Source: Chloroherpetonaceae bacterium (GTDB lineage Bacteria > Bacteroidota > Chlorobiia > Chlorobiales > Thermochlorobacteraceae). Taken from it: 64,000 bases of DNA. The notes under the pieces were generated by a model that was not told the origin of the DNA, made no database searches, and saw only the letters and a program-made list of their open reading frames with translations. Positions 5,009-54,035 of this stretch are shown here, in pieces. The position numbers were made by a program, and so were the translations under genes. The stretch lies in NCBI GenBank assembly GCA_033763895.1, contig JANRJQ010000007.1:322178-386177 (forward strand), read 5' to 3'. The stretch's first letter is position 1; each line of letters begins with the position of its first letter.

Positions 5009-5629
5009 ATGAAATTTACAATTCCGAATAACGCCCTTCTCCAAACCAACCTGTCTATCATTCGCGATAAAAATACACCAAATGATATTTTTAGAATTGC
5101 CCTTGAGAGGATATCTGAAATTATGGCCATCGAAATTGCTCGTGAGTTCGAGACCGAAACATTTCTTTATGATACACCACTTGAAAAGACAACAGGTTAT
5201 CGTTTCAAAGAAAATTTTCTTTTAGCTCCGGTATTAAGAGCGGGGTTAGGGCTTCAAAACGGATTCCTGAAATTTTTACCCGAAGCCACTGTCTCTCATA
5301 TTGGTGTCTCGCGAGATCATCACACGCATCAACCACATTATTATTATTCAAATATTCCTTCTCAAATCAGCGAACTTCACTGCCTTGTGCTTGACCCAAT
5401 GCTCGCTACAGGTGGCAGCGCTTCAATGGCCGTGAAACTGCTAAAAGAAAAGGGAGCTAAAAAGCTTACTTTAATCTCTATCGTTGCAGCACCGGAAGGC
5501 GTGCGCTTCTTTCATCACGAGCATCCGGATGTAGGGATCTATTCAGCCGCTTTAGATAGAGAATTGAATGCCAATAAATATATTCTCCCCGGTCTTGGAG
5601 ATGCCGGAGATCGAATTTTCGGGACTTGA
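5009..5629 (+). CDS. upp: Uracil phosphoribosyltransferase
   Basis: PRPP loop LVLDPMLATGGSA and C-terminal YILPGLGDAGDRIFGT. The track ORF starts at 4964; the internal MKFTIPNN start at 5009 fits the usual length. Confidence 0.9.
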   Translation: MKFTIPNNALLQTNLSIIRDKNTPNDIFRIALERISEIMAIEIAREFETETFLYDTPLEKTTGYRFKENFLLAPVLRAGLGLQNGFLKFLPEATVSHIGVSRDHHTHQPHYYYSNIPSQISELHCLVLDPMLATGGSASMAVKLLKEKGAKKLTLISIVAAPEGVRFFHHEHPDVGIYSAALDRELNANKYILPGLGDAGDRIFGT

Positions 5630-8326: not shown

Positions 8327-10711
8327 TTAAAACTCTCCTTCTCCGCGTTTCTTTGATGGCGGTGTAATGAATGTTGAATTGGCTGAGGTATCAACTCCCG
8401 GAAATAGCGACGAATATCGCTTTAAGCTTTGCGGGGTAAAGAATTCGACATACGTATTGCTTGCACTCATTGGTGCAAATTGAAAGGTCTCTTTTGAAAT
8501 CAGCCGTGCTTCCACTTGCGGCGGACGAACAAAATAGCGAGTTTGAAAACCGAGCGCTTTATCGTCGTAGCAGTCTTTCATGAATTGTGCCCAAATAGGA
8601 AGTGCCGCTCTTCCGCCTTGCCCATATTCCATTGAGGTAAAGTGCACGCGCGAGTCATCCATTCCTGTCCAGACACCCGCCACCAACTGTGGCGTAAAGC
8701 CGACAAACCACGCATCGGCATTGTTTTGCGAAGTTCCTGTCTTGCCCCCGGCTTCGGGATAAAATTTATATCGAAACCTTGCCGAAGCCGCTGTTCCGCC
8801 ATCCATCACACCCTTTAGCATCGAAACCATCACATAATTCGCCGGCTCTTCAAGGGCTTGCGAGCGATCGGGGCGAGCGGTGTAAATCACATTTCCAAAT
8901 TTGTCTTCAATTCGAATAACCGAAACAGGTTCAACATGAATGCCATTATTGGCAAAGGTGCCATAGGCCGAGGTCATTTCAAGCGGGGTCACAGAGGGCG
9001 TTCCTAACGCAATAGATAAATCCATTTGTATCGGCGATTTGATGCCCATTCGCCTTGCGTACTGCGCAATCTTATCGGGCGACATAAATTTTTGCGCTAA
9101 GCGAATGGTCACTTGATTGAGCGAATTCTTGATGGCATCTCGCAGCGTGGTTTCCCCGCCGGATTCCAAATCGGAATTCTCAGGAATCCAAACCTTAAAC
9201 GGTGTTTGAATCGCAAGCGGTTGATTGAGAAAAGTGTAATTCGGTGGAATGCCTTCATCAATCGCGCCGACATACACAAAAGGCTTAAAGGTTGAACCCG
9301 CCTGCCTTCTCGCCTGCCACACGCGGTCAAATTCCCGCTCTTTGTAATTATCAAAATTTCGGCCACCCGTCCACGCTTTGATATAACCTGTCGTTGGGTC
9401 AATGGCAACGAAGGCTGTTTGCACCGTGGTTTTCTTGGTTTGAAGCGCTTTCAACCATTCTTTATCTTCTTTGCAAAGTTTATAGGCTTCCGCTTCACTC
9501 CTGCCTGATTTCACCAACTCTTTATACTTAACATCTTCCTTGATAAAAATCTGAATCAAACTGTCACCTTCTTTTCCTGTCCACTTCCAGTACTTGTTCA
9601 TTTGCTCTTGCAAATACACGAGTTGCCGCTTGATTGCAGAATCTGCATAGGCTTGAATTCGCGTGTCAAGGGTGGTGTAAATAATGAGCCCATCGCGGTA
9701 GAGGTCAAGCTTTTCTTTTGTTAATTCTTTTTGTACCTGCCGTCGAATGTACTCGGTGAAATATGGTGCAATTCCCGCATCCGTTACAGGCGTATGATAG
9801 ACTTGTAACTTCTTTCGCTTTTCAGCTTCAGCCACTTTCTCGGTGATGAATCCGGCCTTTTCCATCAAATCGATAATCACACTCTTTCTTCCTTCAGCAA
9901 TCTCCGGCTGATCAACGGGGTTGTATCGTGCGGGGTTTTTCAAGACACCAATCATCGAGGCCGCTTCGCCAATCGTGAGTTGCGAGGCCGGCTTGCCAAA
10001 GTAGGTCCAAGCGGCGGCTTCAATGCCATAGGCGCCAGAACCGAAATACACGGTATTGAGATAAAGTTCTAAGATTTCGCGTTTGGTGTAAGTACGCTCA
10101 ATTTGAATCGCCGTCATCAGTTCCTTCACTTTGCGGCTCACTTTGCGTTCATCGCCCACATATAAGTTTTTGGCCAATTGCTGTGTAATCGTGCTCGCGC
10201 CTTTCCACGAGCGGCGAAGCAGCACCACATTCTCAATCATCGTTTGCGCAAAGCGGCGAAGGTTAAAACCCCAATGATCATAAAACTCAACATCCTCCGT
10301 TGCCACAAGGGCTTGCACCACATTTTGAGATATGGAATCCATCGGCACAGCGGTGCGGTTAATCTTGAAATACTTGGTGAGTAACACGCCATCGGCAGAA
10401 TAAACTTCGCTCGCCAAATCGGGTTTGGGATTTTCCAATTGCTCAAGGCTTGGCAATTCCGATGACAGCATCACCATCCAGCCAACCACCAAAAGCACTA
10501 CCAAGACCGCGGAACCAATCACAATGTTATAGAGCCATTGCAACTGCTTTCGCCGCTTCGCGATTTTCTTTCTTCTTTCAGGGTTGTTGAAATATTCTTC
10601 TCTTAAGCGCGAGCTGTAGCCCATTTCCTGCTGATCTCCGCTTTGAGGCTTTGGGGTTTCTCGATTTTCTTTTTGAGGATTTTCTCCTTGCCAACGACTT
10701 TCTTCAGACAT
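8327..10711 (-). CDS. mrcA: Bifunctional penicillin-binding protein 1A (glycosyltransferase GT51 + transpeptidase)
   Basis: 794 aa. GT51 motifs ATEDVEFYDHWGF and GASTITQQLAKN. Transpeptidase motifs STFKP, SLN and KTGTS. Charged N-terminal tail followed by one TM segment. Confidence 0.9.
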   Translation of the reverse strand: MSEESRWQGENPQKENRETPKPQSGDQQEMGYSSRLREEYFNNPERRKKIAKRRKQLQWLYNIVIGSAVLVVLLVVGWMVMLSSELPSLEQLENPKPDLASEVYSADGVLLTKYFKINRTAVPMDSISQNVVQALVATEDVEFYDHWGFNLRRFAQTMIENVVLLRRSWKGASTITQQLAKNLYVGDERKVSRKVKELMTAIQIERTYTKREILELYLNTVYFGSGAYGIEAAAWTYFGKPASQLTIGEAASMIGVLKNPARYNPVDQPEIAEGRKSVIIDLMEKAGFITEKVAEAEKRKKLQVYHTPVTDAGIAPYFTEYIRRQVQKELTKEKLDLYRDGLIIYTTLDTRIQAYADSAIKRQLVYLQEQMNKYWKWTGKEGDSLIQIFIKEDVKYKELVKSGRSEAEAYKLCKEDKEWLKALQTKKTTVQTAFVAIDPTTGYIKAWTGGRNFDNYKEREFDRVWQARRQAGSTFKPFVYVGAIDEGIPPNYTFLNQPLAIQTPFKVWIPENSDLESGGETTLRDAIKNSLNQVTIRLAQKFMSPDKIAQYARRMGIKSPIQMDLSIALGTPSVTPLEMTSAYGTFANNGIHVEPVSVIRIEDKFGNVIYTARPDRSQALEEPANYVMVSMLKGVMDGGTAASARFRYKFYPEAGGKTGTSQNNADAWFVGFTPQLVAGVWTGMDDSRVHFTSMEYGQGGRAALPIWAQFMKDCYDDKALGFQTRYFVRPPQVEARLISKETFQFAPMSASNTYVEFFTPQSLKRYSSLFPGVDTSANSTFITPPSKKRGEGEF

Positions 10712-10787
10712 TCACTCGACTTTGTTTCGGGATTTAAGCCCTAAATTTAATTCAACTCTCCTAAATTCCCTTCATAAGAAAAATCAA

Positions 10788-12557
10788 ATGATTAAAAACT
10801 ACTTTACACTCTATTATCTCGCGGCTGAAATTCAAGATGCCGTTCAAGGCGGGTTTGTTATCGATTGCTTTACTCAATCAAAAAATGAATTGCGTATTGC
10901 ATTTGCAACACCTTCCAAAAAAGATTACACCATTATCTTCAATGCCGAGCGCGCGGATATCGCCCTTTACTTCACCCGCGACTCCGCCCGCCAACGCCGC
11001 AATACCACCAGTCTCTTTTCGCCTTTGCGCGAAAAAGAGCTTACGTCGCTTCGCCTTGCCGATCGCGACCGCGTCCTCTCCTTCTTTTTTTCAGAATCGC
11101 TTCAATTGCAATTTCAACTCTTCAGCGCCGATACCTCATGCGCATTGTTTCAAAAAACGGGCGAGACTTGGGAATTGATTGAAAGCTTCAAGAGGAAATC
11201 TCCGGATGTCGCCTTGCCAAAGGAGTCAAAGAATCAATCCACATTCATCTCCGAAGCCTTTGCGCCATTGCCTTTAGAAGCCTCGCCTTCTTTTTTTGCC
11301 GAGTTTGAATCACTCGTTCAATCTCCTGAGAAACTTGAGGCGCGGCTTCGTGAAAGGTTAGATCAATCGACGCAGCCATTTTCTCTTGCGAAAAATTCCC
11401 GCGAAATCTTCCCTTACTTCGATTCCTTTCTTACCAAAGCATTTATCGCCCGCTTTGGAAAGGCATCGCTTGACACGGCGTCGCTTCATACCGATATGCC
11501 GCAGCTTGCCGCAGCACTTGAATCGCTTTTTGATGATCTCTTAAGCCCTGCCCCAACAGTTTACATTGAAGGTGAAGCAAGCGATTCGCCCGTCTGTCAC
11601 TTTTCACTTTTTGCCGATAGCCCAAAAGAAGGCGATACCATCTTCACTTTTGAAAGTGTGAACGATGCACTCTCGGCGTATGCCTATCACCGATACCGAC
11701 TTCTTCACACTCAAAAGGAGCGGCTGAACATGAAGAAAAATTTAGAACGGCTGATCAAAAAAAATGAATCCACCCTTCAGGCCCTTTCAACCAATGAGCA
11801 ATCAAGCCGCATCGCTAAGTATGAAGCCGAGGCCTCGCTGCTTGCAATGAACCGCTCGCTCTTAAAAAAGGGCATGACCTCGGTTACTGTTCAACATTTT
11901 GAGGCACCCTTTGAGCCCGTAACCCTTAAGCTTTTGCCCGATAAATGCCCGCAAGAAAATATCGACCTTGCTTTTCTCTCTGCTCGCAAAGCCAAAGAGA
12001 AGAAGGCCTTTCAAGAAAAACGGCGTGCCGAGCTTGCCCAATATCTTATTGAGCAATACGCGCTTTTAGAAAAGCTTGTGCAAATGAAAAGTTCAAAAGA
12101 GTTTCTTGAATTGAAACAGCGCGAAGCCTCGTTACTCACCCGTTTTGGACTCCTTTCTCAAAAGGAAGCGGAGGAAACCTTTCTCTTTCGAAAATTTCCG
12201 ATCTCCGGCAATGCAGAGCTTTGGGTGGGGAAAAATGCAAAGAATAACGACTTGCTTACGCTTCGCTATGCCAAGCCAAGCGATGTGTGGCTTCATGCCC
12301 GTGGGGTTGCGGGGTCGCATTGTGTGTTGAAATCGCACAGGCCGCCGAGCATCGTCGAGATTGAACGAGCGGCGGAAATCGCGGCGTATTATTCCACGGC
12401 ACGCACTTCCGATTTGGTGCCTGTGATTTATACCGAAAAGAAATATGTCCGCAAGCCTAAGGGGGCCGCGCTTGGCGCAGTGACGGTTGAGCGTGAGAAT
12501 GTCATCCTCGTTCCGCCAAAACCCTTCGGCCCAAAATCCGACGACGACACGGATTGA
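10788..12557 (+). CDS. NFACT-family protein (FbpA N-terminal domain + DUF814; RqcH-like)
   Basis: C-terminal DUF814-type block WVGKNAKNNDLLTLRYAKPSDVWLHARGVAGSHCVLK. The track ORF starts at 10722; the internal MIKNYFTLYYLA at 10788 is the more plausible start. Confidence 0.75.
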   Translation: MIKNYFTLYYLAAEIQDAVQGGFVIDCFTQSKNELRIAFATPSKKDYTIIFNAERADIALYFTRDSARQRRNTTSLFSPLREKELTSLRLADRDRVLSFFFSESLQLQFQLFSADTSCALFQKTGETWELIESFKRKSPDVALPKESKNQSTFISEAFAPLPLEASPSFFAEFESLVQSPEKLEARLRERLDQSTQPFSLAKNSREIFPYFDSFLTKAFIARFGKASLDTASLHTDMPQLAAALESLFDDLLSPAPTVYIEGEASDSPVCHFSLFADSPKEGDTIFTFESVNDALSAYAYHRYRLLHTQKERLNMKKNLERLIKKNESTLQALSTNEQSSRIAKYEAEASLLAMNRSLLKKGMTSVTVQHFEAPFEPVTLKLLPDKCPQENIDLAFLSARKAKEKKAFQEKRRAELAQYLIEQYALLEKLVQMKSSKEFLELKQREASLLTRFGLLSQKEAEETFLFRKFPISGNAELWVGKNAKNNDLLTLRYAKPSDVWLHARGVAGSHCVLKSHRPPSIVEIERAAEIAAYYSTARTSDLVPVIYTEKKYVRKPKGAALGAVTVERENVILVPPKPFGPKSDDDTD

Positions 12558-12574: not shown

Positions 12575-12890
12575 TCTGCCTGCGCTGCACTGAGCCCTGA
12601 TGTGTCGTAACCACCTTCCTTATCCTGTCATTCCCGCAAGCGAAGCGCGTCGGGAATCCCGCACGCCTCTTAAAAGTCATGTCATAACGGACTTAAACTG
12701 AACTCGTCAAGCTCGTTGCCGTATCTGACATGTCATACATTCGCGCTGTGGTTGAGCCTGCGCGGTGGTTGAGCCTATGTGGTGGTTGAGCCTGTGTGGT
12801 GGTTGAGCTTGTCGAAACCACCTTCCTTATCCTGTCATTCCCGCAAGCGAAGCGCGTCGGGAATCCCGCACGGCACATATCATCTGCGCA
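12575..12890. repeat. Family-B composite hairpin repeat cluster
   Basis: A perfect 57-bp direct repeat AACCACCTTCCTTATCCTGTCATTCCCGCAAGCGAAGCGCGTCGGGAATCCCGCACG lies at 12609-12665 and 12816-12872. A 17-bp tandem unit GTGGTTGAGCCTGNNNG occurs four times at 12748-12815. The hairpins are ATTCCCG/CGGGAAT and GGTGGTT/AACCACC. Confidence 0.9.
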
Positions 12891-12992
12891 AATCAGCCCA
12901 AACCGCGTTCTCAGCGTTCCATCGCCTTCATTCTCAGACGGTGAAAAAATTCGCTTTAAAATTCCCCATCTCTTTTCTAAATTCTGAAATAC

Positions 12993-13021
12993 TTGTTCTT
13001 CAATAGTCTCACAACTTAAAT
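12993..13021 (+). promoter_or_regulatory. Promoter-like TTGTTC-N17-TTAAAT inside conserved block C, pointing toward array 1
   Basis: TTGTTC at 12993-12998, a 17-nt spacer, then TTAAAT at 13016-13021. The same hexamers with the same spacing recur at 53964-53992 upstream of array 2. Confidence 0.3.
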
Positions 13022-13189
13022 CACCTCGACTTATGGAAACTCACCTTACAGTCAATCAAGGTTTAACCGAACACAAAAAAATATCGACATTATTATATCA
13101 CTCCCTTCAAACGGATTTCCGACATCTGAATGAAGAACGCATCACTTTCAGGGTTAAAACTGAATATTTTGGGTTCAGAGCTCGGCATT

Positions 13190-13515
13190 TGCACCTAAAA
13201 CATTCACTGTTGGAGGTTCGAACCCCAAGTTTCGACCTAAAACATTGAAATTTGGAGCTTTTACCTCGAGAATTCGATCTTTGACCTCGACTTTTCGACC
13301 TAAAACATCGAAAATTGGTTCTTTGACCTTCAAGCTACGACCTCAAACCTCGACAGTTGAAGCTTTTAGCTCGACTTTTCGACCTTTGACCTCGGCTTTT
13401 GAGGCTTTGAGGTGGGGGGGAGTACCTCAGAGGTGGGAGGGGGTTACCTCGGAAGTGGGGTAATGACTCAAATAGGTGGAATTTGGGGGGGATTGAGGGC
13501 GGAAAGTTACTTAGA
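13190..13515. repeat. Degenerate ~21/42-bp periodic repeat tract ending in G-runs
   Basis: CGACCTAAAACAT-type units start at 13191, 13233, 13296, 13338 and 13379. They are followed by GAGGTGGG...ACCTC units with a period of about 21-22 bp and runs of G7, G3, G5, G4 and G7. Confidence 0.7.
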
Positions 13516-13647
13516 AAATCCAATGCGATAAAAACTGCGGTTTTACGCATGTTTGAATTTTATTTCAGATTAACTTAATTAATTGGGTGGTTTTACGAAT
13601 GTTTTTGAGGGATTTTATAGAAGTTCGTAAAACCATTTGTTGTGTGC
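13515..13647 (+). promoter_or_regulatory. attI-like leader, copy 1
   Basis: GGTTTTACG at 13539-13547 and 13589-13597 (direct) and CGTAAAACC at 13626-13634 (inverted), followed by GTTGTGTGC at 13639-13647. Homologous by manual alignment to 54036-54166. Confidence 0.55.
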
Positions 13648-13696
13648 AACCCTAAAAGACGACCGTGCAGACAGAAACGAGAGGACAAAATGAAGA

Positions 13697-13777
13697 AGCC
13701 AACGCACATTCAAGCACATTTGCCTGCCAACTCAAAGGCGACCACTTCGCAGGCAAAAGAGCTTGAATTTTGCCAAC
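13697..13777 (+). repeat. Structured palindromic element A, upstream of the R-M operon
   Basis: AGCCAAC, then ATTCAAGC-aca-TTTGCCTGC, a 21-nt loop, GCAGGCAAA-aga-GCTTGAAT, then GCCAAC. Same architecture as element B at 16324-16406, but both stems are changed in a compensatory way. Confidence 0.7.
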
Positions 13778-13820
13778 ACACGGGAACAATAAGACACGTA
13801 TTTTGCTAACTTTGTAACCT

Positions 13821-15389
13821 ATGACAAATAATATAAATATCGAACCTTTAAACCAAGAACTTCCAAGCAAGTTTGCGGATAGGTTAGGTATTTATTACAC
13901 GCAACAAGTAACAACTAAACATAAAAAAGACAACGGACAGTTTTTTACACCGACAGAAATTGCCCAACTTATGGCTTCTTATTGCGACTTGACAAAGAAT
14001 ACAATCAGAATTTTAGACCCAGGTTGCGGAACAGCTATTTTGACTTGTGCTTTAATTGAACATTTAGTTGAAACACGAAATGACATAGAACTTATTGACT
14101 TAGTTGCTTATGAAACAGACCCGGACTTAATTACATTTTCACAAAAGGTATTGACATATTTAAAAAAATGGCTTTTAGAAAAGGGTATTAAATTTCAATA
14201 TTTACTTCACATTCACGACTTCATTTTAGACAATGCAAAAGCATTAAAAGAAAACTATAACGGTGAACAATTTGATTTAATAATTTCAAATCCACCCTAC
14301 TTTAAACTTGCAAAGGATGATGAAAAAACCATTGCAGCAAAAGAGTTAGTAAGCGGACAGCCCAATATCTATTCAATTTTTATGGGCATTGCTGCAAAAC
14401 TTCTTTCTGAAAACGGAGAGTTGATTTTTATTACACCGAGAAGTTTTGCGTCAGGCAATTATTTTAAAGCATTCAGAGAACTGTTTTTTAACACTGTTCA
14501 AATTGACAAAATACATTTGTTTAATTCACGTAAAGACACCTTTAATCGTGACAGCGTTTTGCAAGAAACTGTTGTAATAAAAGCAATCAGAGAAGAAATC
14601 AATCCAAACAAAAATGTGCTTGTTTCTTCAAGCATAGGAATTAAAGACATTTTTCAACCTACGATAAAATATTTCAATTCTTCAGAACTCATTGACCTAA
14701 ATTCAAAAGAGAAAATTTTGCATTTGCCGACAAGCGACAAAGAAGAAAATATTTTGAATTTGGTTTCTACTTGGCACAATGTTCTGACTGATTTTGACAT
14801 AAAAATTTCAACGGGACCCGTTGTTTCATTTCGGGCTTTAGAGTTTATTCAAAACAACTATGAGAACGGAACAGTTTTTTTAGCTCCTTTATTTTGGCTA
14901 CATAACGTAAACAAAATGACTTTAGAATGGCCAAAACAACTAAAAGAAAAAGGACAATTCATAAGAATAGAAAACGGTTCTAAATCATTACTGCTACCAA
15001 ATAAAAACTACATTTTATTAAGACGCTTTAGCACAAAAGACGACAAGAGCAGATTGATTGCAGCACCTTATTTCTGCAACTATGTTAAATCATATTTTGT
15101 AGGAGTTGAAAACAAAGTGAATTACATATACAGAAAAGACGGACACTTAGACCGTAACGAAGTTGTTGGACTTTGTGCATTACTGAATAGTGAATTATTT
15201 GACACTTACTTTCAAATTTTCAACGGAAACGTAAATGTAAGTGCAACCGAACTTAGAGAAATGAGATTTCCACCATTAGAAAACATAAAAGAAATTGGCA
15301 ATAAAATCATACTTTCCAACGACTACTCAATGAACAATGTAAACAACATTGTAAACGAGCTTTTTGAATTGGAAGTAATAATGAATTGA
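13821..15389 (+). CDS. N6-adenine DNA methyltransferase (Eco57I/PstI-type, gamma class)
   Basis: 522 aa. FFTP near the N-terminus, AdoMet motif ILDPGCGTAIL and catalytic motif LIISNPPYF. Followed 1 nt later by a restriction endonuclease gene. Confidence 0.9.
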   Translation: MTNNINIEPLNQELPSKFADRLGIYYTQQVTTKHKKDNGQFFTPTEIAQLMASYCDLTKNTIRILDPGCGTAILTCALIEHLVETRNDIELIDLVAYETDPDLITFSQKVLTYLKKWLLEKGIKFQYLLHIHDFILDNAKALKENYNGEQFDLIISNPPYFKLAKDDEKTIAAKELVSGQPNIYSIFMGIAAKLLSENGELIFITPRSFASGNYFKAFRELFFNTVQIDKIHLFNSRKDTFNRDSVLQETVVIKAIREEINPNKNVLVSSSIGIKDIFQPTIKYFNSSELIDLNSKEKILHLPTSDKEENILNLVSTWHNVLTDFDIKISTGPVVSFRALEFIQNNYENGTVFLAPLFWLHNVNKMTLEWPKQLKEKGQFIRIENGSKSLLLPNKNYILLRRFSTKDDKSRLIAAPYFCNYVKSYFVGVENKVNYIYRKDGHLDRNEVVGLCALLNSELFDTYFQIFNGNVNVSATELREMRFPPLENIKEIGNKIILSNDYSMNNVNNIVNELFELEVIMN

Positions 15390-15390
15390 T

Positions 15391-16326
15391 ATGAGTAAAA
15401 CAGAAGAAGCACAAGAGATACTGAAAGCATTAGGACTGCCGCCAGCACAATACAACGAAATGGCGGCATTGACATTTTTAGCAATCTGTAACATTAAGGA
15501 AAATGACAGTTGGGCAAACGCAACTCGTCAAAGTTTAGGCGTTACAAAAGGAATAATGACTTTTGTAAATGACAATTACGGTAAATCATATGCACCAAAT
15601 ACAAGAGAAACATTTAGAAGACAAGTGCTTCACCAATTTGTTCAGGCAAGGGTTGTTGACTACAACCCCGACAAACCTGATTTGCCAGTAAACAGCCCAA
15701 ATGCTCATTACGCTTTAACAAAGGAAGTTTTGGAAGTTGTAAAAACATACAAAACCAAAAATTGGGACAAAGCTCTTAAAAACTTCATTGACACGGTTGG
15801 AAAACTTTCAGAAGTGTATTTGAAAGAAAGAGAATTAAATCAAATCCCTGTTACACTTCAAAACGGAGAAACAATAAAACTTTCCGCAGGAAAACATAAT
15901 GAAGTTCAAGCTGCAATAGTTGAACAGTTTGCTCCACGTTTTGCAAATGGTGGTACACTTCTATACTTAGGCGACACAGCAAAAAAAGATTTGTTTGTGG
16001 ACGAAAAAGGGCTAAAAGATTTGGGCATTCCAATTGACCAACACAGCAAACTACCTGACGTTGTAATTTATGACAGTAAAAGAAAATGGTTGTTTCTAAT
16101 TGAAGCCGTAACTTCTCACGGACCTGTTTCGCCCAAACGACTTTTAGAGCTTGAAGAATTTTTAAAAGACTGCAAAGTTGGTAAGGTTTACGTGACCGCT
16201 TTTCCCGATATGTCAGAGTTTAAGAAACATTCAAACAACATTGCTTGGGAGACAGAAGTTTGGTTAATGGAAGTTCCTGACCATATGATACATTTTAACG
16301 GAGACAGATTTATGGGGCCAAGATAG
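15391..16326 (+). CDS. Type II restriction endonuclease, BsuBI/PstI family
   Basis: 311 aa, tightly coupled to the methyltransferase. N-terminal HTH-like EEAQEILKALGLPPAQYNEMAALTFLA and C-terminal DVVIYDSKRKWLFLIEAVTSHGPV, which match my recollection of this family. Not verified by search. Confidence 0.75.
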   Translation: MSKTEEAQEILKALGLPPAQYNEMAALTFLAICNIKENDSWANATRQSLGVTKGIMTFVNDNYGKSYAPNTRETFRRQVLHQFVQARVVDYNPDKPDLPVNSPNAHYALTKEVLEVVKTYKTKNWDKALKNFIDTVGKLSEVYLKERELNQIPVTLQNGETIKLSAGKHNEVQAAIVEQFAPRFANGGTLLYLGDTAKKDLFVDEKGLKDLGIPIDQHSKLPDVVIYDSKRKWLFLIEAVTSHGPVSPKRLLELEEFLKDCKVGKVYVTAFPDMSEFKKHSNNIAWETEVWLMEVPDHMIHFNGDRFMGPR

Positions 16327-16406
16327 CCAACGCAATTGGTGGCACATTTGCAAAACCGCACAAGCCAAAGCTAAAGCCAAGTTTTGCAAAAGAGCCACCA
16401 AGCCAA
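16324..16406 (+). repeat. Structured palindromic element B, downstream of the R-M operon
   Basis: AGCCAAC (16324-16330), TTGGTGGC-aca-TTTGCAAAAC (16335-16355), a 24-nt loop, GTTTTGCAAA-aga-GCCACCAA (16380-16400), then GCCAAC (16401-16406). Confidence 0.7.
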
Positions 16407-16462
16407 CGCCAACAAAAACTGACACTAAATGACTGAAAAACAGACGACAAAAACAGAAGGGC

Positions 16463-16597
16463 AGCACACAACAGCGGTTTTGCGTAATGGCGGGTTCGGT
16501 GCTTCGCATGACAGTTTAGTGGTAGGTTCAAGTTCAGTTCTTCGATTGAACTTTTGTGCTAAAAATCCGCCACTACGCCAAGCCGCTCCCCATTAGC
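16463..16597 (+). repeat. attC-like imperfect palindrome 1
   Basis: Left arm GCACACAAC-AGCGGTTTTGCGTAATGGCGG pairs, with mismatches and a CCCCA bulge, with CCGCCACTACGCCAAGCCGCT-cccca-TTAGCC. Near-identical by manual alignment to 61370-61502. Confidence 0.65.
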
Positions 16598-16659
16598 CGT
16601 CATTGTAAAGCGACACTTAGAAAAAACCTTAAATTTGAAACGAACTAAAGAATAACAAA

Positions 16660-17115
16660 ATGCTAAAACTGGAATTCAAAAAAGACATTAACACAACAGC
16701 TCAAAAAGTTTATGAATCGATGTTGGGTTTAAAGAACAAAAGCACATATGAACATTGGACCTCTGCCTTCAACCCTACTTCTACTTACGAAGGGAATTGG
16801 GAAATTGGAAGTAAAATTTATTTTGTTGGAATGGACGAAAATGGAAAAAAAGGAGGAATGGTTTCAAGAATTGAAGATAATCAACCTTCTAAATTTGTTT
16901 CTATCCAACATTACGGATTCTTAAATGGAGATGATGAAATAACTACTGGCGAACAAGTTGAAAAATGGTCAGGCGGACACGAAAATTATACATTTCAAGA
17001 AACCAATGGCATAACAACTGTGACAGTAGAAATTGACGTAATTGAAGAATATTCAGATTATTTCAAAGACAACTATCCAAAAGCATTAGATAAATTGAAA
17101 GAAATTTGTGAATAA
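16660..17115 (+). CDS. SRPBCC (AHSA1/START-like) domain protein
   Basis: 151 aa. Size and pattern (KVYESMLG...WTSAF...GGxxxGRI...) are typical of SRPBCC ligand-binding proteins. Lies in a cassette. Confidence 0.7.
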   Translation: MLKLEFKKDINTTAQKVYESMLGLKNKSTYEHWTSAFNPTSTYEGNWEIGSKIYFVGMDENGKKGGMVSRIEDNQPSKFVSIQHYGFLNGDDEITTGEQVEKWSGGHENYTFQETNGITTVTVEIDVIEEYSDYFKDNYPKALDKLKEICE

Positions 17116-17124
17116 CATTTTTGT

Positions 17125-17487
17125 ATGCAAGAAACAGACAAACATAACGAACGAATTGCAAAAATGACTTTTGCTTCTGTTTTTCCGCATTACGTTACAA
17201 AAGTAGAAAGTAAAGGAAGAACAAAGGACGAACTGTATCAAGTTATTAAGTGGTTAACAGATTTTGACAAAGCAAAAATTCAACAACTCATTGATGAAAA
17301 AGTAACTTTTGAAACTTTCTTTGAAAGGGCAACTCTAAACCCAAATGCGGAAAAAATTACAGGAATGATTTGTGGTTACAGAATTGAAGAAATTCAAAAC
17401 CCTTTAACTAAAAAAGCAAGATATTTGGACAAAATAATTGACGAATTAGCAAAAGGTAAGAAAATAGAAAAAATTTTAAGACAATAA
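17125..17487 (+). CDS. DUF2200 family protein
   Basis: 120 aa. KMTFASVFPHYVTKVESKGRTKDELYQVIKWLT...YLDKIIDELAKGKKIEKIL matches my recollection of DUF2200. Confidence 0.6.
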   Translation: MQETDKHNERIAKMTFASVFPHYVTKVESKGRTKDELYQVIKWLTDFDKAKIQQLIDEKVTFETFFERATLNPNAEKITGMICGYRIEEIQNPLTKKARYLDKIIDELAKGKKIEKILRQ

Positions 17488-17503
17488 TAAAAAAACAATA
17501 AGA

Positions 17504-17911
17504 ATGGCAAAACAAGTTTTTATCAATTTAGCAGTAAAAGACCTTCAAAAATCAATGGTTTTTTATACTGCACTTGGCTTTTCAAATAATCCACAATTTT
17601 CTGATGATACTGCAAAATGTATGGTTTGGAGTGAAAACATTTATGTTATGTTACTAACCCACGAAAAATTTTCAACTTTTACAACAAAGCAAATCGCTGA
17701 TACAAAATCGAAAATTGCAGGACTTTTTTCATTGTCTTTAGAAAGTATTGAAGAAGTGAATATACTTATGACAAATGGACTTAATGCTGGTGGAATTGAA
17801 CCCAATGAAATGAGAGATTATGGATTTATGCAACAACGAACTATTGAAGATTTTGACGGACACACTTGGGAAGTATTTTATATGGATATGAGTAAATTTC
17901 CAACTGAATAA
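17504..17911 (+). CDS. VOC (glyoxalase/bleomycin-resistance fold) family protein
   Basis: 135 aa. FINLAVKDLQKSMVFYTALGF...DFDGHTWEVFYM is typical of the VOC fold. Confidence 0.8.
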   Translation: MAKQVFINLAVKDLQKSMVFYTALGFSNNPQFSDDTAKCMVWSENIYVMLLTHEKFSTFTTKQIADTKSKIAGLFSLSLESIEEVNILMTNGLNAGGIEPNEMRDYGFMQQRTIEDFDGHTWEVFYMDMSKFPTE

Positions 17912-17922
17912 AAACAACGAAC

Positions 17923-18078
17923 GGCTAACACGGGTTTTGCGTCAGGCGGGCTGACGTGCAAACTTGGAGCATTGTGCTTCTATTGAACTTTAGTAATAAA
18001 TTGAAACTTTGTGCTCCGAACTGAAAGTCAGCGAAGCTAAACCCGCCCGAACGCAAAGCCGCTCCCCCATTGTGCGCC
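17923..18078 (+). repeat. attC-like imperfect palindrome 2
   Basis: GGCTAAC-ACGGGTTTTGCGTCAGGCGGGCTGAC pairs with GTCAG..CCCGCCCGAACGCAAAGCCGCT-ccccca-TTGTGCGCC. Its left box GGCTAAC is complementary to the cassette start TTAGCC at 16592. Confidence 0.65.
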
Positions 18079-18395
18079 TTTTAACTGTAAATCATCGAGA
18101 CAACAATTAGCCAAAACCTAACCAAATAAAGCTTTCAAATCGATATATTTTGCTTATTTACACAAATTATCTTAACATAAGTAGTTTACAACCTTCTTAT
18201 ATTTACTTTTCTTGCATGAATAGATGATTTTATGAGCAGAATTGGCCTTATTCCAACAGAATAAATCAAATTGCATTGATCAGGGTGAAAAGGAAACTTG
18301 ACACTTTGTGACTTGATTGAATATCACCGCTGTGAAACGAGGGCGAAGTCATAAAAAGTTAAAAGCTATTCATCTATTCTAATGATTTAATCCAT

Positions 18396-18863
18396 ATGAC
18401 CATTCAACAAAAAATAACCCCTTGCCTTTGGGTTGAAAAAGATGCAAGAGAAGTCGTCAATTATTATTTATCAATTTTTAAGGAAGGCAAACTCAAAGAT
18501 TATCGACAATTCACCAATCCACCGGAAATGGGGGGCGAGACTTTTGAAACGGCGGTAATGGAAATTGCAGGAATGGAATTGAGTATTTTAGCTGCAGGGC
18601 CACTATTTAAGTTTAACGAAGCCGTTTCGTTTGTCATTAATACCAAAGACCAAGCTGAAACCGATTATTATTGGGAAGCCATCACTTCAAATGGCGGCGA
18701 AGAAGGGGTATGCGGTTGGTGTAAAGATAAATATGGACTCTCGTGGCAAATTGTTCCCGTAGAATACTTCTCTCTTATTCATAATGATGACCCCAAAGTC
18801 AGAGAAAAAGCCTTAATGAATACTTTTAAGATGAAAAAGCTTATTCTATCGGAGCTAAAATGA
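18396..18863 (+). CDS. VOC-superfamily protein of the PhnB/YjdN type (3-demethylubiquinone-9 3-methyltransferase-like domain)
   Basis: 155 aa. ITPCLWVEKDAREVVNYYLSIF...GWCKDKYGLSWQIVP is characteristic of this family. Confidence 0.7.
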   Translation: MTIQQKITPCLWVEKDAREVVNYYLSIFKEGKLKDYRQFTNPPEMGGETFETAVMEIAGMELSILAAGPLFKFNEAVSFVINTKDQAETDYYWEAITSNGGEEGVCGWCKDKYGLSWQIVPVEYFSLIHNDDPKVREKALMNTFKMKKLILSELK

Positions 18864-22211: not shown

Positions 22212-22931
22212 ATGTTTAGAAAAAAGTATCAAGTCAAACCCAATACAGTCGGTTATTTATACCGCGATAATGTTTTTGTTGCAACTTTATCTCCGGGGAT
22301 TTATAAATTTTGGGATTTCAGAAATCGAACCGAGCTTTTTATACTTCCTGAGCCTTCTCGGTTATTATCGATTGTCAATCAAGAAGTATTGACAAAGGAT
22401 AACATTGCACTTCGATTTTCATTTTATGTCGTTTACCGAATCGTAGATGGCGTTTTATTCCTTAAAAAATTTACTTTGGATCGGCCTATTAACGCCATAA
22501 TTTCAGAAGCGGAGCAACGATTATTGCACGGTGCTCAAATTCATGTCCGAAAGAAAATCTCATAAATCGAAAGTGAAGATTTAAATGAAAAGCGTTCCGA
22601 ATTTGCTGACCTTCACACACCTGATTTTGAAAAATAGATGTCTGAGATTGGAATTATGATCGAGCAAATTCAAATTCGTGATATAACCTTTCCCAAAACA
22701 ATTCAAGATTTATTTGCAAAACACTTGGAGGCAAAAATCAAAGCAAAATCGGAGCTTGAAAATGCAAGAACAGCCGTAGCAGCTGCAAGAGCTTTGAAAA
22801 ATGCTTCCGAATTAATGAAGGATGATGAGAACATAAGATTTTTTCAGATGATTGAAACACTCAATAAAATTGCGGAAAAAGGAAAGCACACCTTTATGAT
22901 TGGGGATTTTCAACAATTCATGAAAAAATGA
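22212..22931 (+). pseudogene. SPFH/band-7 (stomatin/HflC-like) gene broken by two in-frame stops
   Basis: ORFs 22212..22565 and 22638..22931 are in the same frame. Reading through TAA (22563-22565) and TAG (22635-22637) gives ...HVRKKIS*IESEDLNEKRSEFADLHTPDFEK*MSEIGIMIEQIQIRDITFPKTIQDLFAK..., a continuous SPFH-like sequence. Confidence 0.65.
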
Positions 22932-42561: not shown

Positions 42562-42644
42562 TGATACTCCTTGCTTTCCAAAAGATACAAAGAATGAGAA
42601 TCAGTTGAGAATGAGATCGCTGCGATACTTCAGTGTTACAGCTT

Positions 42645-42985
42645 GTGCGGCGCTTAAGCCTGCGCGGTGGTTGAGCTTGTCGAAACAACCGCGCAATTTC
42701 TTTTCATGTCATTCCAGCAAGCGAAGCGCGTCGGGAATCCAGCACGCACCAAATTGAGGTGGTTGAGCTTCTAGAAACTACCGCATCGTTTGCCCTTTAT
42801 CCTTTGTGTTCTCAGTGATTCCTCAGTGTACTCCGTGTTTCGGAATTACAAACACAAAGGTCACAAAGAAATACCACAATGGACACGGAGAATAAATACA
42901 ATCATTTGTCATTCCCGCAAGCGGAGCGCGTCCGAAATCCTCCACGCAGCAAATTGAGGTGGTTGAGCCTCTCAAAATCATTCCT
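42645..42985. repeat. Family-B composite hairpin repeat cluster
   Basis: Composite 77-bp units GTCATTCC..CGGGAATCC..CACCAAATTGAGGTGGTTGAGC..GAAACTACCGC lie at 42708-42784 and 42908-42984, exactly 200 bp apart. An extra GGTGGTTGAGCTTGTCGAAACAACC lies at 42667-42691. Confidence 0.9.
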
Positions 42986-43090
42986 CAAGTTCCACTTGTT
43001 TTCACGACATTCCTTTCTTTGAATTGCTTAATTTTGCCTCAACAGTCACACTCTGATTCGTCTATTCTCTGATAGAAAACACCATAGAAA

Positions 43091-44142: not shown

Positions 44143-44316
44143 CGGCGCCGCACTGCGCCCTGCGCGGTGGTTGAGCCTGTCGAAACCACTGTCTGAACTG
44201 TGATTTATAGGATTAAGTGATGAACATGATTATTAATGTCATTCCCGCAAGCGAAGCGCGTCGGGAATCCTGCACGCACCAAATTAAGGTGGTTGAGCCT
44301 GTCGAAACTACCGCGT
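44143..44316. repeat. Family-B composite hairpin repeat cluster
   Basis: GGTGGTTGAGCCTGTCGAAACCAC at 44167-44190 and a 77-bp composite unit at 44238-44314, in direct orientation with 42908-42984. Confidence 0.9.
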
Positions 44317-44649
44317 GATGAAGACACGCACGCAGATGACACTGATTGAGCAGATTAACGCAGATATTCAGTGAAAATCAGTTCATACTGCGTTTCAGTA
44401 ACCGGGATGAAAAAGATTTTATTATAGACTCAAAAAATCGCTTTCAAAATTCATTTCCCTTTTCTAAATTCTTAAATCTTTGTTCCTTCAAGAGAAAAAA
44501 TATTTGTCTATTGATGAAAGAATGACTTAAATTTCTTAAGGTGATATTTATTTTAAATTATTAAAATGTAAATCCGTAAATTGCAAAAAAAATCGATTAT
44601 TTTTTATATCCAGTAGCTTCAATAGTAAAAAATCTAAACTCAACCTATA

Positions 44650-45369
44650 ATGGATAACTTAGATAAATTAACCAAGCTTTATTCAAATTTAATAAAGCTC
44701 ATAAATAATAGAAAAGATGACTTTAATGAAGAATTTGTAAGTGTTTTTAACTATGCAAAAGGCTCAGAATACGACAATAAAGAATTCGACAATAAATTTC
44801 TAATTGTTGGTAGATCAGTAAATGGATGGACAAATTACAATAAAAATGAATTGTTATTAAAAGAAGGTGAAATTATAAACCGAATAGGAAATGATAACCT
44901 ACAATGGACAATTAACAATTGGGGTATAAATTACGGTAAAACCTATAACACAAAAAGGTCTGCCTTTTGGAGAATAAATAGAAAAATAACCGATTTAGTA
45001 TATCAAGTAAGTGATTATAATTTTAATAAACTTAGCTGGACAAACCTTTACAAAATATCAAATGCTGCAGGAGGAAATCCTTCTCCAAAATTACAGGCTT
45101 TACAATTTGATCTTGTGAAACAAATATTAATTGAAGAAATAAGAATTTTAGAACCAAAATACATCGTTTTTCTCACTGGTTACGACTGGGCAAAACCATT
45201 CTTAATTGAAAACGATAACATTAAAATAGAATTACTCAATCAGACTAATTATGTAAAAGCAAAAGGCTCTTTTTTTAATAGTAAATTTGCAGTTGGACTA
45301 CATCCACAAGGAAAATTAGAAATGAAACATGCAGAAGAAATATTAGAATATTTGGATTTAAAAAATTAA
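44650..45369 (+). CDS. Hypothetical protein with weak UDG-superfamily-like hints
   Basis: 239 aa, AT-rich. FLIVGRSVNGW near the N-terminus and FAVGLHPQGK near the C-terminus loosely resemble UDG-fold motifs A and B. The inference is weak. Confidence 0.45.
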   Translation: MDNLDKLTKLYSNLIKLINNRKDDFNEEFVSVFNYAKGSEYDNKEFDNKFLIVGRSVNGWTNYNKNELLLKEGEIINRIGNDNLQWTINNWGINYGKTYNTKRSAFWRINRKITDLVYQVSDYNFNKLSWTNLYKISNAAGGNPSPKLQALQFDLVKQILIEEIRILEPKYIVFLTGYDWAKPFLIENDNIKIELLNQTNYVKAKGSFFNSKFAVGLHPQGKLEMKHAEEILEYLDLKN

Positions 45370-45495
45370 CTTTAGGAAATGATAATATTTAGTTTGGTAT
45401 TTTATCATGTAGCCAAAGAGTTTATTGCTTTATATGAAATATATTAAAATTTAATCATATTACTCTAACCCTTAATTCGAAATAACAAATAATCA

Positions 45496-45846
45496 TCATA
45501 AACTTTTCAAAGATTCATAATGCTTTTTAAGATGTTTTTCTAAAATTTTCAAACATTCCTTTTTTTCTCTAAATGATAGCGTCTCATTAACAAAATACGA
45601 CATCTCCACATCATTTAAGTTTTTAGCCAAATAATCGTATTCTTGATCAGTAATTCGGAAAACTTGTTTTATTGCGTTATCAATTAAATCAGGAATTCCG
45701 CCAATAGTCTTTAATCCTAATTCATCCCAAGTTCTGTTTCGCCTTTTGCAACGGCTTATTAAAGAATCTTCTACACATGTTTTTTCGTCAAGCGTGGCTA
45801 TTTGTGCACTTTGCTCATTGAGATTTAAATTTTTATTCATGACCAT
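45496..45846 (-). CDS. Hypothetical protein
   Basis: 116-aa ORF in an AT-rich accessory block. No motif recognised. Confidence 0.4.
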   Translation of the reverse strand: MVMNKNLNLNEQSAQIATLDEKTCVEDSLISRCKRRNRTWDELGLKTIGGIPDLIDNAIKQVFRITDQEYDYLAKNLNDVEMSYFVNETLSFREKKECLKILEKHLKKHYESLKSL

Positions 45847-45960
45847 TTTTATTTTATAGAATTACACACCAATACCTGTACTTATTATTTACTTACAATT
45901 TTAAATTCCCATCTTCGAGGAAAAAAAATTAAGAAAAAACGATAGTCTTTTTCTTATATC

Positions 45961-46308
45961 TTAATGTCTCTTTGCGAAATAAATCTTCTTCGGAAATTTC
46001 CCAAAAACAAAAGTCGTGACTTGACATAACCAAAATTTATGCTCGCGTGGCTTACCATTAAATGTTCGTAGGAAATAATCCCCACCTCCAAACATCACTT
46101 CTCCCTCTTTGACTAAATCAGCGACATAGGAGCCGTCAAATCCTTCAGTTGACATTATCACTTCCACTTCTTTTTCGCCATCAGCGTACATATCAAGGAG
46201 TTCATCAGCGCCCGAAACCATCTCCAATTCTTCCTTAAGCCCAGTCCAATTTGGTAAATCGATATACCAACGGCCGTCTTCTTCCTTATAAAAGCGATAA
46301 TATTTCAT
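45961..46308 (-). CDS. Conserved-looking hypothetical protein
   Basis: 115 aa. RWYIDLPNWTGLKEELEMVSGADELLD...FWLCQVTTFVFGKFPKKIYF looks like a small family I have seen before, but I cannot name it with certainty. Confidence 0.45.
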   Translation of the reverse strand: MKYYRFYKEEDGRWYIDLPNWTGLKEELEMVSGADELLDMYADGEKEVEVIMSTEGFDGSYVADLVKEGEVMFGGGDYFLRTFNGKPREHKFWLCQVTTFVFGKFPKKIYFAKRH

Positions 46309-46721
46309 TTTTGATATTATTTATGTTTTTGATTACACATTGAAAGGCGGCTGTTAGTTCGCTGAAAGTGAAAAAAAACTTCTAGATTTTACAACTATTT
46401 TATCAAACAATTTTTTAATAAAACATTCCATTGTCGGCAATATTATATGTGAATTTATTTCTGATGCATTCAATTCTATTTCTCAATTATATTACTCATT
46501 TCTATTTTTTTCCCTCACCCCCTTCTTGCACCTCATCACACCCCATAATTTCTTTGCACATTCATTTGCTGGAACTTCTTAGATTGCGCTTTGTTAAAGT
46601 TCACGAGAGTTTGTGAAAGCTTGAAGATTACGGAATTGAAACGCACAAAAATCCATATCAACCAAGAGGCAGTAAAAACTGCCCTTTCGTATTTTAAACA
46701 CTTTTTAATCATTGAATCGCA

Positions 46722-50070: not shown

Positions 50071-51495
50071 ATGTTTCTCCGATCTCCTCATTTTCGGTTT
50101 TTGATCCTCGTAATTACATTTAATTTTCTTGTTTTCAGTGGCTGCACCAACTCAAAGATAAGCACATCTAGTTTATTTACTGAAAACCATCCTTTCATTT
50201 TCATAAAGGAATATCAAAAGTATATCCCCATTTCCGTGAATAAAGGAGATACAACAATTTACCCTGATTTGGTTTTTCATAAATTGGAAAAAGGAAGTCA
50301 TCAATACCTCAATTATTTCAATATATCATCAGAAGTTAATCAAGAAATTATAAATTTCGACACCTCACTATCTTCCTCGATATCATACTTTAATCACAAT
50401 AAAGAGATATTCTTTTCGAATGGTAGTATTTTTTATTTATTTGAAAATTTTTCTAAAAATTTATTTATTTTTCTTGCAACCCCAATTTTTATGAGTTTAG
50501 GAGTAGCATTTGGACTACTCTTTAGCCCTTTTATTATCCAAAAGGCTATTTTTGACCCCCCTGAGGTAATCTATTTTGATGTAAGAGATGAAGTTACAAA
50601 TCAATCTCTTAATTCTACACTTATTTATTGTGTACCAAATCACTTTATTTCACAAGTATTTGAAGACAGCTTGGGTTTAAGGAAACGACTGAAAGAACCA
50701 AAACTTGAGTATATAAAAATTGATTCAAATACAATCAAATTGATTCAAACGAGTTTACCGAATACTCCAACAGCTTTAACAGCCTTAGGAAATGCACTTA
50801 TACCCTTTGCCCAAACTAAGTTTATTCATGATTTTGACTATCGATATTACTCTGAAAGATTAAAGCTTTCTAATCAATCAGACACGGATGTAGAGTCGAT
50901 TAATTCAATAAAAAAACGATTCAAAAGTCGTGATACTTCTTTTACCTCGATTTATCCATTTGGTATTACTAAAAAAGATTTCTTAAATCTATTAAATATA
51001 AATCTTACTTTGGAAGAAAGTAGGAAGGTCAATTTCGACAGCATAGGTTTTTACTTCATATTTCACCGAGAGGGATACATTCCTCAATACCTTTACATCG
51101 ATTATCAAAAATTTAAAGAGACTTTGTTTAAAATTAAATTAAAAAGAAGAGAAGTTTCTGTCTCTGACAATAATTTAAATTTCTTTAATGAATTTTTGAG
51201 AATTAACTACTTTTTGCATGAAGTATGGAACATTAAAAAAAAATTTCCCAAGAAATTTAAGTTAATCCCTTTAGATACCTATTTAACATATTCAAAATTA
51301 AGTGAAATTGATGCTTCAATTGAAATTATTGAGAAATTAATACCTCAGGAACCAGTAGTAGAAATTTATAAGTTTATAAAATATCAATTTTTAGGAGAAA
51401 CAACATCCGATAAATCAAGTTCTAGGTATTTAACAGACAAAGATTTTTTTCTATTTAAATATGATTATATCTTGTTCAATGAGGAACTTTATTAA
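50071..51495 (+). CDS. Hypothetical lipoprotein (AT-rich orphan)
   Basis: 474 aa. Lipobox LVFSGC, very Asn/Lys/Phe/Ile-rich, with one internal hydrophobic segment. Confidence 0.45.
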   Translation: MFLRSPHFRFLILVITFNFLVFSGCTNSKISTSSLFTENHPFIFIKEYQKYIPISVNKGDTTIYPDLVFHKLEKGSHQYLNYFNISSEVNQEIINFDTSLSSSISYFNHNKEIFFSNGSIFYLFENFSKNLFIFLATPIFMSLGVAFGLLFSPFIIQKAIFDPPEVIYFDVRDEVTNQSLNSTLIYCVPNHFISQVFEDSLGLRKRLKEPKLEYIKIDSNTIKLIQTSLPNTPTALTALGNALIPFAQTKFIHDFDYRYYSERLKLSNQSDTDVESINSIKKRFKSRDTSFTSIYPFGITKKDFLNLLNINLTLEESRKVNFDSIGFYFIFHREGYIPQYLYIDYQKFKETLFKIKLKRREVSVSDNNLNFFNEFLRINYFLHEVWNIKKKFPKKFKLIPLDTYLTYSKLSEIDASIEIIEKLIPQEPVVEIYKFIKYQFLGETTSDKSSSRYLTDKDFFLFKYDYILFNEELY

Positions 51496-51515
51496 ATTTC
51501 TAATTCAAATTTAGT

Positions 51516-53992: not shown

Positions 53993-54035
53993 GACCTCTG
54001 CATTTGCATCTTTAATAATGGAATTTTTAATTCAA

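Follow-up and report, generated by a model that had tools for sequence, protein, structure and literature searches.

Integron cassettes carry a signature at their ends, in that the inverse core of the 59-base element matches the core that opens its own cassette. The attI1 site is built in the order DR2, DR1, L and R (DR, direct repeat), and about half of all attC clusters are groups of attC sites that have no integron integrase (CALINs) and whose origin is unknown. To our knowledge, attI sites beyond a few mobile integron classes are essentially uncharacterised. We describe here a 64,000-nucleotide (nt) stretch of DNA from a Chloroherpetonaceae bacterium (GenBank assembly GCA_033763895.1, contig JANRJQ010000007.1, positions 322,178 to 386,177 of the forward strand), referred to as the window, in which two copies of a 127-nt element, the leader, each head a co-oriented array of integron-type cassettes, the two arrays containing in total six attC hairpins of one family. 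On balance we favour an interpretation of the leader as an orphan attI-like site on which an integron-type tyrosine recombinase, encoded elsewhere, acts in trans.

Like attI (attI1 and attIVch), the leader occupies the 5′ boundary of a cassette array with one site per array and a predicted G|TT crossover (the bar denotes the point of exchange), and like attI1 it has an inverted L-box-like element shortly before the putative R box together with two upstream direct repeats of the same word. Unlike attI, it occurs as two diverged copies 40 kb apart on one chromosome, neither of them beside intI; it has no sequence similarity to known attI classes, and its L-box word, which resembles the local attC L box, can pair with an upstream copy as a 13-bp hairpin. 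An attI proper normally lies next to intI, mostly in divergent orientation and no more than a few hundred bp away, and recombines in double-stranded form with the folded bottom strand of attC. The attI-like reading is thus supported for function and position, whereas membership of attI proper fails on the missing intI neighbour.

The closest described attC clusters are CALINs, defined as attC clusters without an integron integrase (Cury et al. 2016, PMC4889954; Neron et al. 2022, PMC9024848), and as clusters of two and four attCs with no integrase within 13-40 kb both arrays fit the definition of Cury et al. (PMC4889954). Unlike a CALIN, which is defined without a head site, each of these clusters opens with a conserved attI-like element, which argues for insertion in situ over the breakage of a former integron. 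Complete integrons have been reported in Chlorobi and Ignavibacteriae (PMC4889954; PMC9024848), and IntegronFinder annotates attI for classes 1-3 only, by exact match (PMC4889954). A further class of site, attG, comprises genomic double-stranded GWT targets that have been proposed as the source of small CALINs and of single attC sites lacking integron integrases (SALINs), and as possible ancestors of attI (bioRxiv 10.1101/2022.09.11.507474).

Leader architecture and the cassette junction

The elements of the two leaders are as follows.

13515-13641 (+): leader copy 1, head of array 1, ending in the junction GTT at 13639-13641
54036-54162 (+): leader copy 2, head of array 2, with words at 54060, 54110 and 54147 and the GTT at 54160
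13539-13547 (+): direct word a of copy 1, GGTTTTACG, with a longer ~20-nt form GGTTTTACGCATGTTTGAA
13589-13597 (+): direct word b of copy 1, GGTTTTACG, forming the left side of a hairpin of 13 bp in which 13588-13600 pairs with 13623-13635
13624-13641 (+): junction-proximal core of copy 1, TTCGTAAAACCATTTG|TT, with the inverted word at 13626-13634 inside it
54145-54162 (+): junction-proximal core of copy 2, TTCGTATATCCTATTG|TT, matching the core motif

An earlier reading of this stretch, made from the sequence alone, had noted that the two leaders align and that their similarity ends at the GTT; both observations hold, the alignment (family D6) being ungapped over 127 nt at 76% identity. It had also described the arrangement of the nine-base word in copy 1, and this was reproduced: the word lies in direct orientation at 13539 and 13589 and inverted at 13626, four bases separating the inverted copy from the GTT, which begins at the fifth base on, at 13639. 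The equivalents in copy 2 are GGTTTTACG at 54060, GGTTATGCG at 54110 and CGTATATCC at 54147, followed by the GTT at 54160, and the spacings of the elements (50, 37 and 4 nt) are the same in both leaders despite 24% divergence. The leader-internal ~50-nt repeat was not detected by Tandem Repeats Finder.

The concern that the leader might be a common dispersed repeat, or its word simply abundant, is answered within the window. A profile built from both leaders gave two nhmmer matches (E 7e-39 and 4e-41; next best E 0.39), each at the head of an array, and GGTTTTRCG occurs 10 times against 1.57 expected, a count that none of 100 shuffles reached; since seven of these ten occurrences lie in leaders or palindromes, the word is not generally abundant here.

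The proposal that the leader is the array-proximal recombination site is upheld by comparison with other loci. At locus L104, the restriction-modification (RM) cassette that opens array 1 of the window stands behind an ordinary attC (...CGCAAAGCCGCGGTCCG|TTGTGTGCAACCCTAAAAAGACGACC...). From the GTT on, the two loci are ~93% identical, the 5′ leader of the cassette included, and the methylases are 97% identical as proteins; upstream of the GTT they are unrelated, with an attC right arm in L104 and the leader in the window. This homology breakpoint falls exactly at the GTT and supports the leader as the array-proximal junction. The RM cassette ends at its 3′ side in GCACACAAC, the complement of its own first bases, in the window and in L104 alike. 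Behind leader 1 the sequence is a typical cassette 5′ end of the kind found after many attCs, the 8-9 nt that follow the leader G| complement the R″ box of the attC that comes next, and the 22-mer GTTCAGCTAAACTCCGCTTCGC occurs after leader 2 and after attC P6 and nowhere else. Judged by sequence comparison, the leader GTT is a true cassette junction with predicted strand exchange at G|TT, which in leader 1 would fall between 13639 and 13640.

A core shared with array heads in other genomes and phages

The final 16 leader bases, TTCGTAWAW-N6-G|TT, are found again in unrelated bacterial and phage contigs, where they likewise head cassette arrays. In the slightly wider form TKCGTAWAW-N6-G|TT the core heads arrays in eight other loci, while in the window it matches the two leaders only; searched as T[GT]CGTA[AT]A[AT]-N6-GTT, it gave 12 matches in 1.22 Mb against 2.4 ± 1.9 in block shuffles. 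The RM cassette of the window lies directly behind the core in three loci (L105, TTGCGTATATTTATGAG|; L106, GTGTTGCGTATATATGCTCG|; L118, TGCGTATATCTGGGAG|), and in L104 the core TTGCGTATATTTATGAG| precedes a different first cassette. Since L063, L073 and L087 were fetched by attC patterns, their core matches are independent of the core motif. L087 and L117, both phage genomes, carry terminase, portal and head genes upstream. At five junctions (L087, L073, L104, L117 and leader 1) the first attC downstream has an R″ that is the perfect complement of the 8 nt after G|, and in eight of nine loci attCs lie downstream of the core only, on the same strand. A divergent recombinase gene, cut short at 251 aa, starts 180 bp from the core of L104; its product has Phage_int_SAM_4 and Phage_integrase domains, best partial NCBIfam matches to XerA/integron integrase and TIGR02249, and PDB matches to an Xer-like protein, IntI4, XerA and XerD.

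These comparisons bear on two further claims of the sequence-only reading. GGTTTTRCG had been put forward as the recombinase-binding word, a claim that is only partly supported: its inverted copy overlaps the conserved TKCGTAWAW, but the exact 9-mer is not conserved elsewhere. The attI-like architecture had likewise been proposed, and the order direct, direct, inverted, GTT does mirror DR2, DR1, L, R of attI1; however, other loci conserve only the inverted word and the GTT, and for the direct copies no counterpart was found in other genomes. The leader profile found no significant match by nhmmer over all fetched loci, an exact scan of genome and metagenome contigs with a leader 21-mer returned no match, and neither did a BLAST search with the D8 element (see below), the leader and attC P3 against plasmids and phages. 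As far as these searches went, the two direct words belong to this genome alone, the upstream 100 bases of the leader having no detectable relative elsewhere.

Used as we propose, the leader would be the double-stranded, array-proximal partner at which circular cassettes were inserted. The enzyme would bind the core, composed of an L-box-like TTCGTAWAW, a 6-nt spacer and the R box GTT; the core would then be paired with the folded strand of a cassette attC hairpin, and one strand would be exchanged between G and TT. Replication would resolve the intermediate, leaving new cassettes directly downstream of the leader, and the two upstream direct words may serve as accessory binding sites, like DR1 and DR2 of attI1.

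A broader version of this idea, which we put forward only tentatively, is that the integrase of a Bacteroidota-Ignavibacteriota-Chlorobiota integron lineage recognises a ~20-bp pad, TKCGTAWAW-N6-G|TT, of which orphan copies exist in chromosomes and phages. This would amount to a distributed integron with attI uncoupled from intI, the pad having grown in the present genome into a duplicated 127-bp leader with accessory repeats, and several loci per genome could then, with no integrase close by, be seeded with arrays that consist largely of phage-defence genes and exchange them. A head site recognisable across phyla and phages would provide a sequence handle on where cassettes enter genomes and would help to separate insertion in situ from integron decay. 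The core site could also help to explain the movement of defence cassettes (RM, PDC-M65, SoFic and MoxR-VWA) between distant lineages and phages.

The attC family

All six palindromes of the window begin xxxxAAC. The sequence-only reading had the leader word, with one change, forming their inner arms, which is correct for three of the six (16476, 17933 and 54190), where the left inner arm is GGTTTTGCG and the right inner arm opposite it is CGCAAAGCC or CGCCAAGCC; the other three carry variant inner arms. When the 10 nt after the right-hand x|TT of each site were set against the 10 nt that precede the C of the AAC at the next site, read as reverse complement, 8, 8, 7, 8, 2 and 6 of 10 positions matched, as opposed to 2-5 of 10 for the box of the same site. 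The sum of 39 is the maximum over the 720 possible permutations, of which six attain it. As far as sequence can tell, this next-site complementarity is the classical integron-cassette signature.

Together with sites from other contigs, the window sites form an alignment of 13 attCs, most of them 136-137 nt long. With the stem specified by hand, compensatory changes are seen in 12 of its 24 pairs, and 77.5% of cells are paired, compared with 31-43% when the partners are slid. RNAalifold found no structure in the first MAFFT alignment of the palindromes, and the trimmed alignment with the hand-set structure was the one that worked. Positions equivalent to the 9-mer covary within the family, indicating that they are conserved as structure and not as a sequence word. 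A covariance model (R1) was built from this 13-site alignment with five window sites in training and P3 held out; it scored 79-129 bits on the five training sites and 26.6 bits (E 1.6e-4) on P3, and over the window found no attC beyond the six.

In its uniform length (~136 nt), conserved sequence and compensatory stem changes the family resembles the Vibrio cholerae repeats, and as in sedentary-integron attCs the R″ and R′ boxes end in AAC and start with GTT, with R″ complementary to the start of its own cassette. Unlike the Vibrio cholerae repeats, the family is spread over Bacteroidota, Ignavibacteriaceae, a Chloroherpetonaceae metagenome-assembled genome and phage contigs, and it is also present in dozens of IMG/VR contigs. 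In contrast to the canonical attC, which has its extra bases on the R″-L″ arm, the extra unpaired bases here are on the R′ arm beside the R box. Arrays on Ignavibacteriaceae contigs (L041-L046) have canonical GTTA cores and perfect next-site complementarity.

A crossover at the left-hand AAC, with the attC preceding its cassette, was considered because the AAC is invariant and the extra bases are on the right arm. It was rejected as the principal reading because the sole conserved array-end element is on the left, because the 22-mer starts at the right-hand G|TT of P6 and of leader 2, and because the Ignavibacteriaceae homologues show a canonical GTT on the right.

Several smaller features of the family were noted. 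The spacer before the crossover in P1, P2 and P3 reads GCTCCCC(C)A|TT (16585-16592, 18061-18069 and 54242-54249), where Ignavibacteriaceae homologues 92-96% identical have xxAAAC(C)G|TT; the three sites thus share one local replacement in which the canonical G was lost, and the cause could be decay or adaptation to another integrase. Columns 25 and 133 of the alignment (A4) form no standard pair in any of the 13 attCs and may represent a conserved mismatch that serves as a structural mark. Two IMG/VR arrays (L070, 2958-7653; L075, 7672-13579) have plus-strand attCs whose next-site complementarity is correct, yet nearly all long open reading frames (ORFs) between the attCs are on the minus strand, opposite to the usual cassette orientation. 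A scan with an attC right-arm 19-mer gave 14 metagenome matches and one viral match, all of them chance matches in GC-rich coding DNA with no left arm.

Integrase search and alternative readings of the leader

The sequence-only reading had suggested looking for a tyrosine-recombinase gene beside the leader, and the outcome was negative: there is none beside either copy or in the 64-kb window. This is the first of several observations that weigh against the leader as an attI-like site. No Phage_integrase domain was found by Pfam in 50 window ORFs; tblastn over the window with an IntI1 sequence that scores 168 bits on Pfam Phage_integrase returned nothing below E 1; and no integrase remnant was visible among the ORFs upstream of either leader. 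The upstream 100 nt of the leader itself have no significant similarity in pairwise alignment to the upstream regions of L104 or L106. At L118, the exception among the nine core loci, the core has an attC 1.3 kb upstream of it. In four of the six window attCs the base before TT, the first R′ position, is not G but A (three sites) or T (one site), which again sets them apart from the Vibrio cholerae repeats and may point to decay of the arrays. Finally, most other core sites have no integrase within 2.5-10 kb, so that the site may be a preferred genomic target and not a dedicated attI, and the weak preference of the covariance model for the minus strand of the leader suggests that the leader may derive from an inverted attC-like site.

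The first of these last two points leads to the main rival, which we regard as unlikely though it deserves to be taken seriously: the leader would be a duplicated intergenic module containing a good secondary target of the attG type, into which cassettes were inserted in trans, and the upstream words and hairpin would serve another purpose or none. It differs from the interpretation as an attI-like site mainly in whether the accessory words matter. Integron integrases do insert cassettes at double-stranded genomic GWT (bioRxiv 10.1101/2022.09.11.507474), and the leader is, like attG, a genomic target away from an integrase with cassettes entering at a GWT-type triplet. Core sites head cassettes in unrelated contexts, among them phage genomes where they lie between structural or replication genes, with no integrase nearby, and have only ~16 nt in common with the leader. 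However, the attG consensus in E. coli is minimal, with almost nothing beyond GWT, whereas here a 9-nt block is kept at a fixed offset from the GTT in genomes and phages alike, in no fewer than eight independent sites. The leader also has two more copies of the word at conserved spacing, repeats of a kind that described attG sites lack, as they do an extended conserved core. The leaders head accumulated arrays of three and four cassettes and not single insertions, and one core, that of L104, adjoins an integrase remnant. The leader is more specific than attG as described.

The second point bears on the leader as a relic. In this account, which we hold to be distinctly improbable, the 3′ half of the leader is the remnant of an attC-like hairpin, possibly inverted, left over from a cassette or an inversion event; it would signal where a decayed array ends and would no longer serve as an integration site. 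The hairpin GGTTTTACGAA-N26-TTCGTAAAACC uses the inner-arm word of the attCs, and at one position of the arms the two leader copies differ by a compensatory change from T-A to A-T. R1 aligns 13571-13647 from end to end on the minus strand, with R″ as GCACACAAC and R′ as GTTAATC, and the longer spacer is on the left arm, opposite to the cassette attCs. The match to leader 1 is nevertheless not significant (9.6 bits, E 3.4) and leader 2 is unmatched, scores which, beside those of the training sites, also led us to reject the leader itself as an attC. A relic would moreover leave unexplained why a core at the same offset heads arrays in phages and other chromosomes without an evident hairpin partner, and why exact spacing has been kept in two copies.

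It is highly improbable, in our view, that the leader is mainly transcriptional, a Pc-like promoter or an operator for the downstream operons whose position at array heads is secondary. Both copies do lie upstream of co-oriented operons, their repeated words could be operator sites, and the attI regions of known integrons overlap promoters. Yet no sigma-70-like promoter was predicted inside either leader, the window contains no Rfam families or tRNA genes, the two downstream operons are unrelated, and an attC lies between leader 2 and the first ORF behind it; nor would a promoter explain the homology breakpoint at the GTT.

Two further identities were tried for the leader and set aside. As a host repetitive extragenic palindromic (REP) repeat it was compared with five REP clusters, against which both leaders gave z from -0.5 to 1.7, and its two copies in the window are both at array heads. 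As a known structured RNA or a tRNA-derived att site it found no Rfam family (at the gathering threshold) and no tRNA or transfer-messenger RNA (tmRNA) gene in the window. A third leader beside the third D8 element was sought with the leader profile and none was found.

Cassette arrays and their cargo

Downstream of each leader runs a low-GC series of plus-strand genes with long imperfect palindromes between them. Array 1 comprises, in order, the leader, a type II RM system, P1, three small ORFs, P2 and a PhnB-like gene, and is followed by a convergent histidine kinase gene. Array 2 comprises the leader, the ORF-less P3, PDC-M65A/B, P6, MoxR and VWA genes, P4, Fic/SoFic and P5, after which comes a convergent gene for a Cys/Met-metabolism pyridoxal phosphate enzyme. 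The cassettes are delimited as follows.

13640-16592 (+): cassette 1.1, type II RM system with methylase (13821-15389) and BsuBI/PstI-type endonuclease (15391-16326); attC P1 at 16464-16600
16593-18069 (+): cassette 1.2, three small ORFs; attC P2 at 17921-18077
18070-18863 (+): truncated terminal cassette of array 1, PhnB-like gene (18396-18863), with no attC behind it
54161-54249 (+): cassette 2.1, ORF-less and essentially attC P3 (54178-54257)
54250-57908 (+): cassette 2.2, candidate defence pair PDC-M65A/B; attC P6 at 57779-57916
57909-61496 (+): cassette 2.3, 37-nt hairpin (57908-57944), MoxR AAA+ and VWA genes; attC P4 at 61368-61504
61497-62879 (+): cassette 2.4, Fic/SoFic gene; attC P5 at 62752-62887

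The cargo is mostly phage-defence genes, with defence genes or candidates at 13821-16326 (type II RM), 54303-57745 (PDC-M65A/B, with model scores of 484 and 959 bits), 58002-61350 (MoxR-VWA) and 61572-62741 (SoFic). The three ORFs of cassette 1.2 encode a 151-aa protein without a family match, a DUF2200 protein and a protein with a weak glyoxalase/bleomycin-resistance-like match near the Pfam cut-off. Homologues of the RM methylase 95-99% identical occur in many assemblies, and an exact-sequence look-up of four window ORFs as delimited returned no record. Cassette 2.3 opens with a 37-nt hairpin region that has the 22-mer in common with cassette 2.1, and is probably, from its sequence, two cassettes fused after the loss of an attC. 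The hairpin has a perfect 12-bp stem (GTTCAGCTAAAC...GTTTAGCTGAAC) and is homologous to the ORF-less cassette 2.1. The R″ of P4, GCAGGTAAC (61368-61376), agrees with GTTACCTGC, with which a different RM cassette opens in L044.

Homologues of the PhnB-like protein are 85-90% identical, and several named ones are from Bacteroidota. The label Ignavibacteriaceae derives from a contig retrieved with these homologues. In the cassette arrays of the Ignavibacteriaceae contigs that carry such a homologue (L041-L046), attCs match P1, P2 and P4 at 92-96% identity, and in these contigs a cassette with PhnB and AHSA1 genes lies between attCs (L041, 3198-4127); the PhnB-like gene of the window has neither an AHSA1 gene nor an attC.

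Surrounding DNA

The NFACT protein encoded upstream of array 1 (10722-12557) has its nearest GTDB representative in Candidatus Thermochlorobacter, and because this is only 38% identical, synteny could not be used. An AT-rich element, D8, occurs three times in the window, in the form AAAAAATCGCTTT...CTTTTCTA...TTGTTC.

53916-54010 (+): D8 element, ~95 nt, directly upstream of leader 2
12945-13040: D8 element, 470 nt upstream of leader 1
44432-44485: third D8 element, preceding a low-GC island at 44650-46310 that has no attC and no leader

A link between D8 and the leader is at most putative. The stretch between D8 and leader 1 (13230-13460) contains tandem repeats of 21 and 63 nt together with a G-rich repeat of 22 nt, GAGGTGGGGGGGAGTACCTCA, a block that copy 2 does not have. 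GC-rich clusters of dispersed palindromic repeats (GGTGGTTGAGCCTGTCGAAACCAC, TGTCATTCCCGCAAGCGAAGCGCGTCGGGAATCC) at 12600-12880, 42630-42990, 44159-44314, 52480-52700 and 53369-53775 flank the islands and lie upstream of both D8-leader units, without sequence relation to the leader. Among REP repeats ~0.8 kb upstream of leader 2 stands a ParE toxin gene that has an antitoxin-like ORF of 77 aa upstream of it (52750-53272, minus strand).

Elsewhere in the window, the low-GC island after the third D8 and another at 50071-52052 (GC 0.29-0.30) flank mfd, most of their ORFs having no family match, and again no attC is present. Adjacent ORFs at 22212-22565 and 22638-22931 correspond to the N- and C-terminal parts of a Band_7/SPFH protein, which looks split or frameshifted. 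Outside the window, L047 has a defence-gene array between housekeeping genes whose last gene is PhnB-like, and a different ~150-nt repeat, ATGCATATTTGTAAAGTAACTTA...GCCTGA..., precedes three gene sets in that locus (1600-1800, 5440-5625 and 8330-8549).

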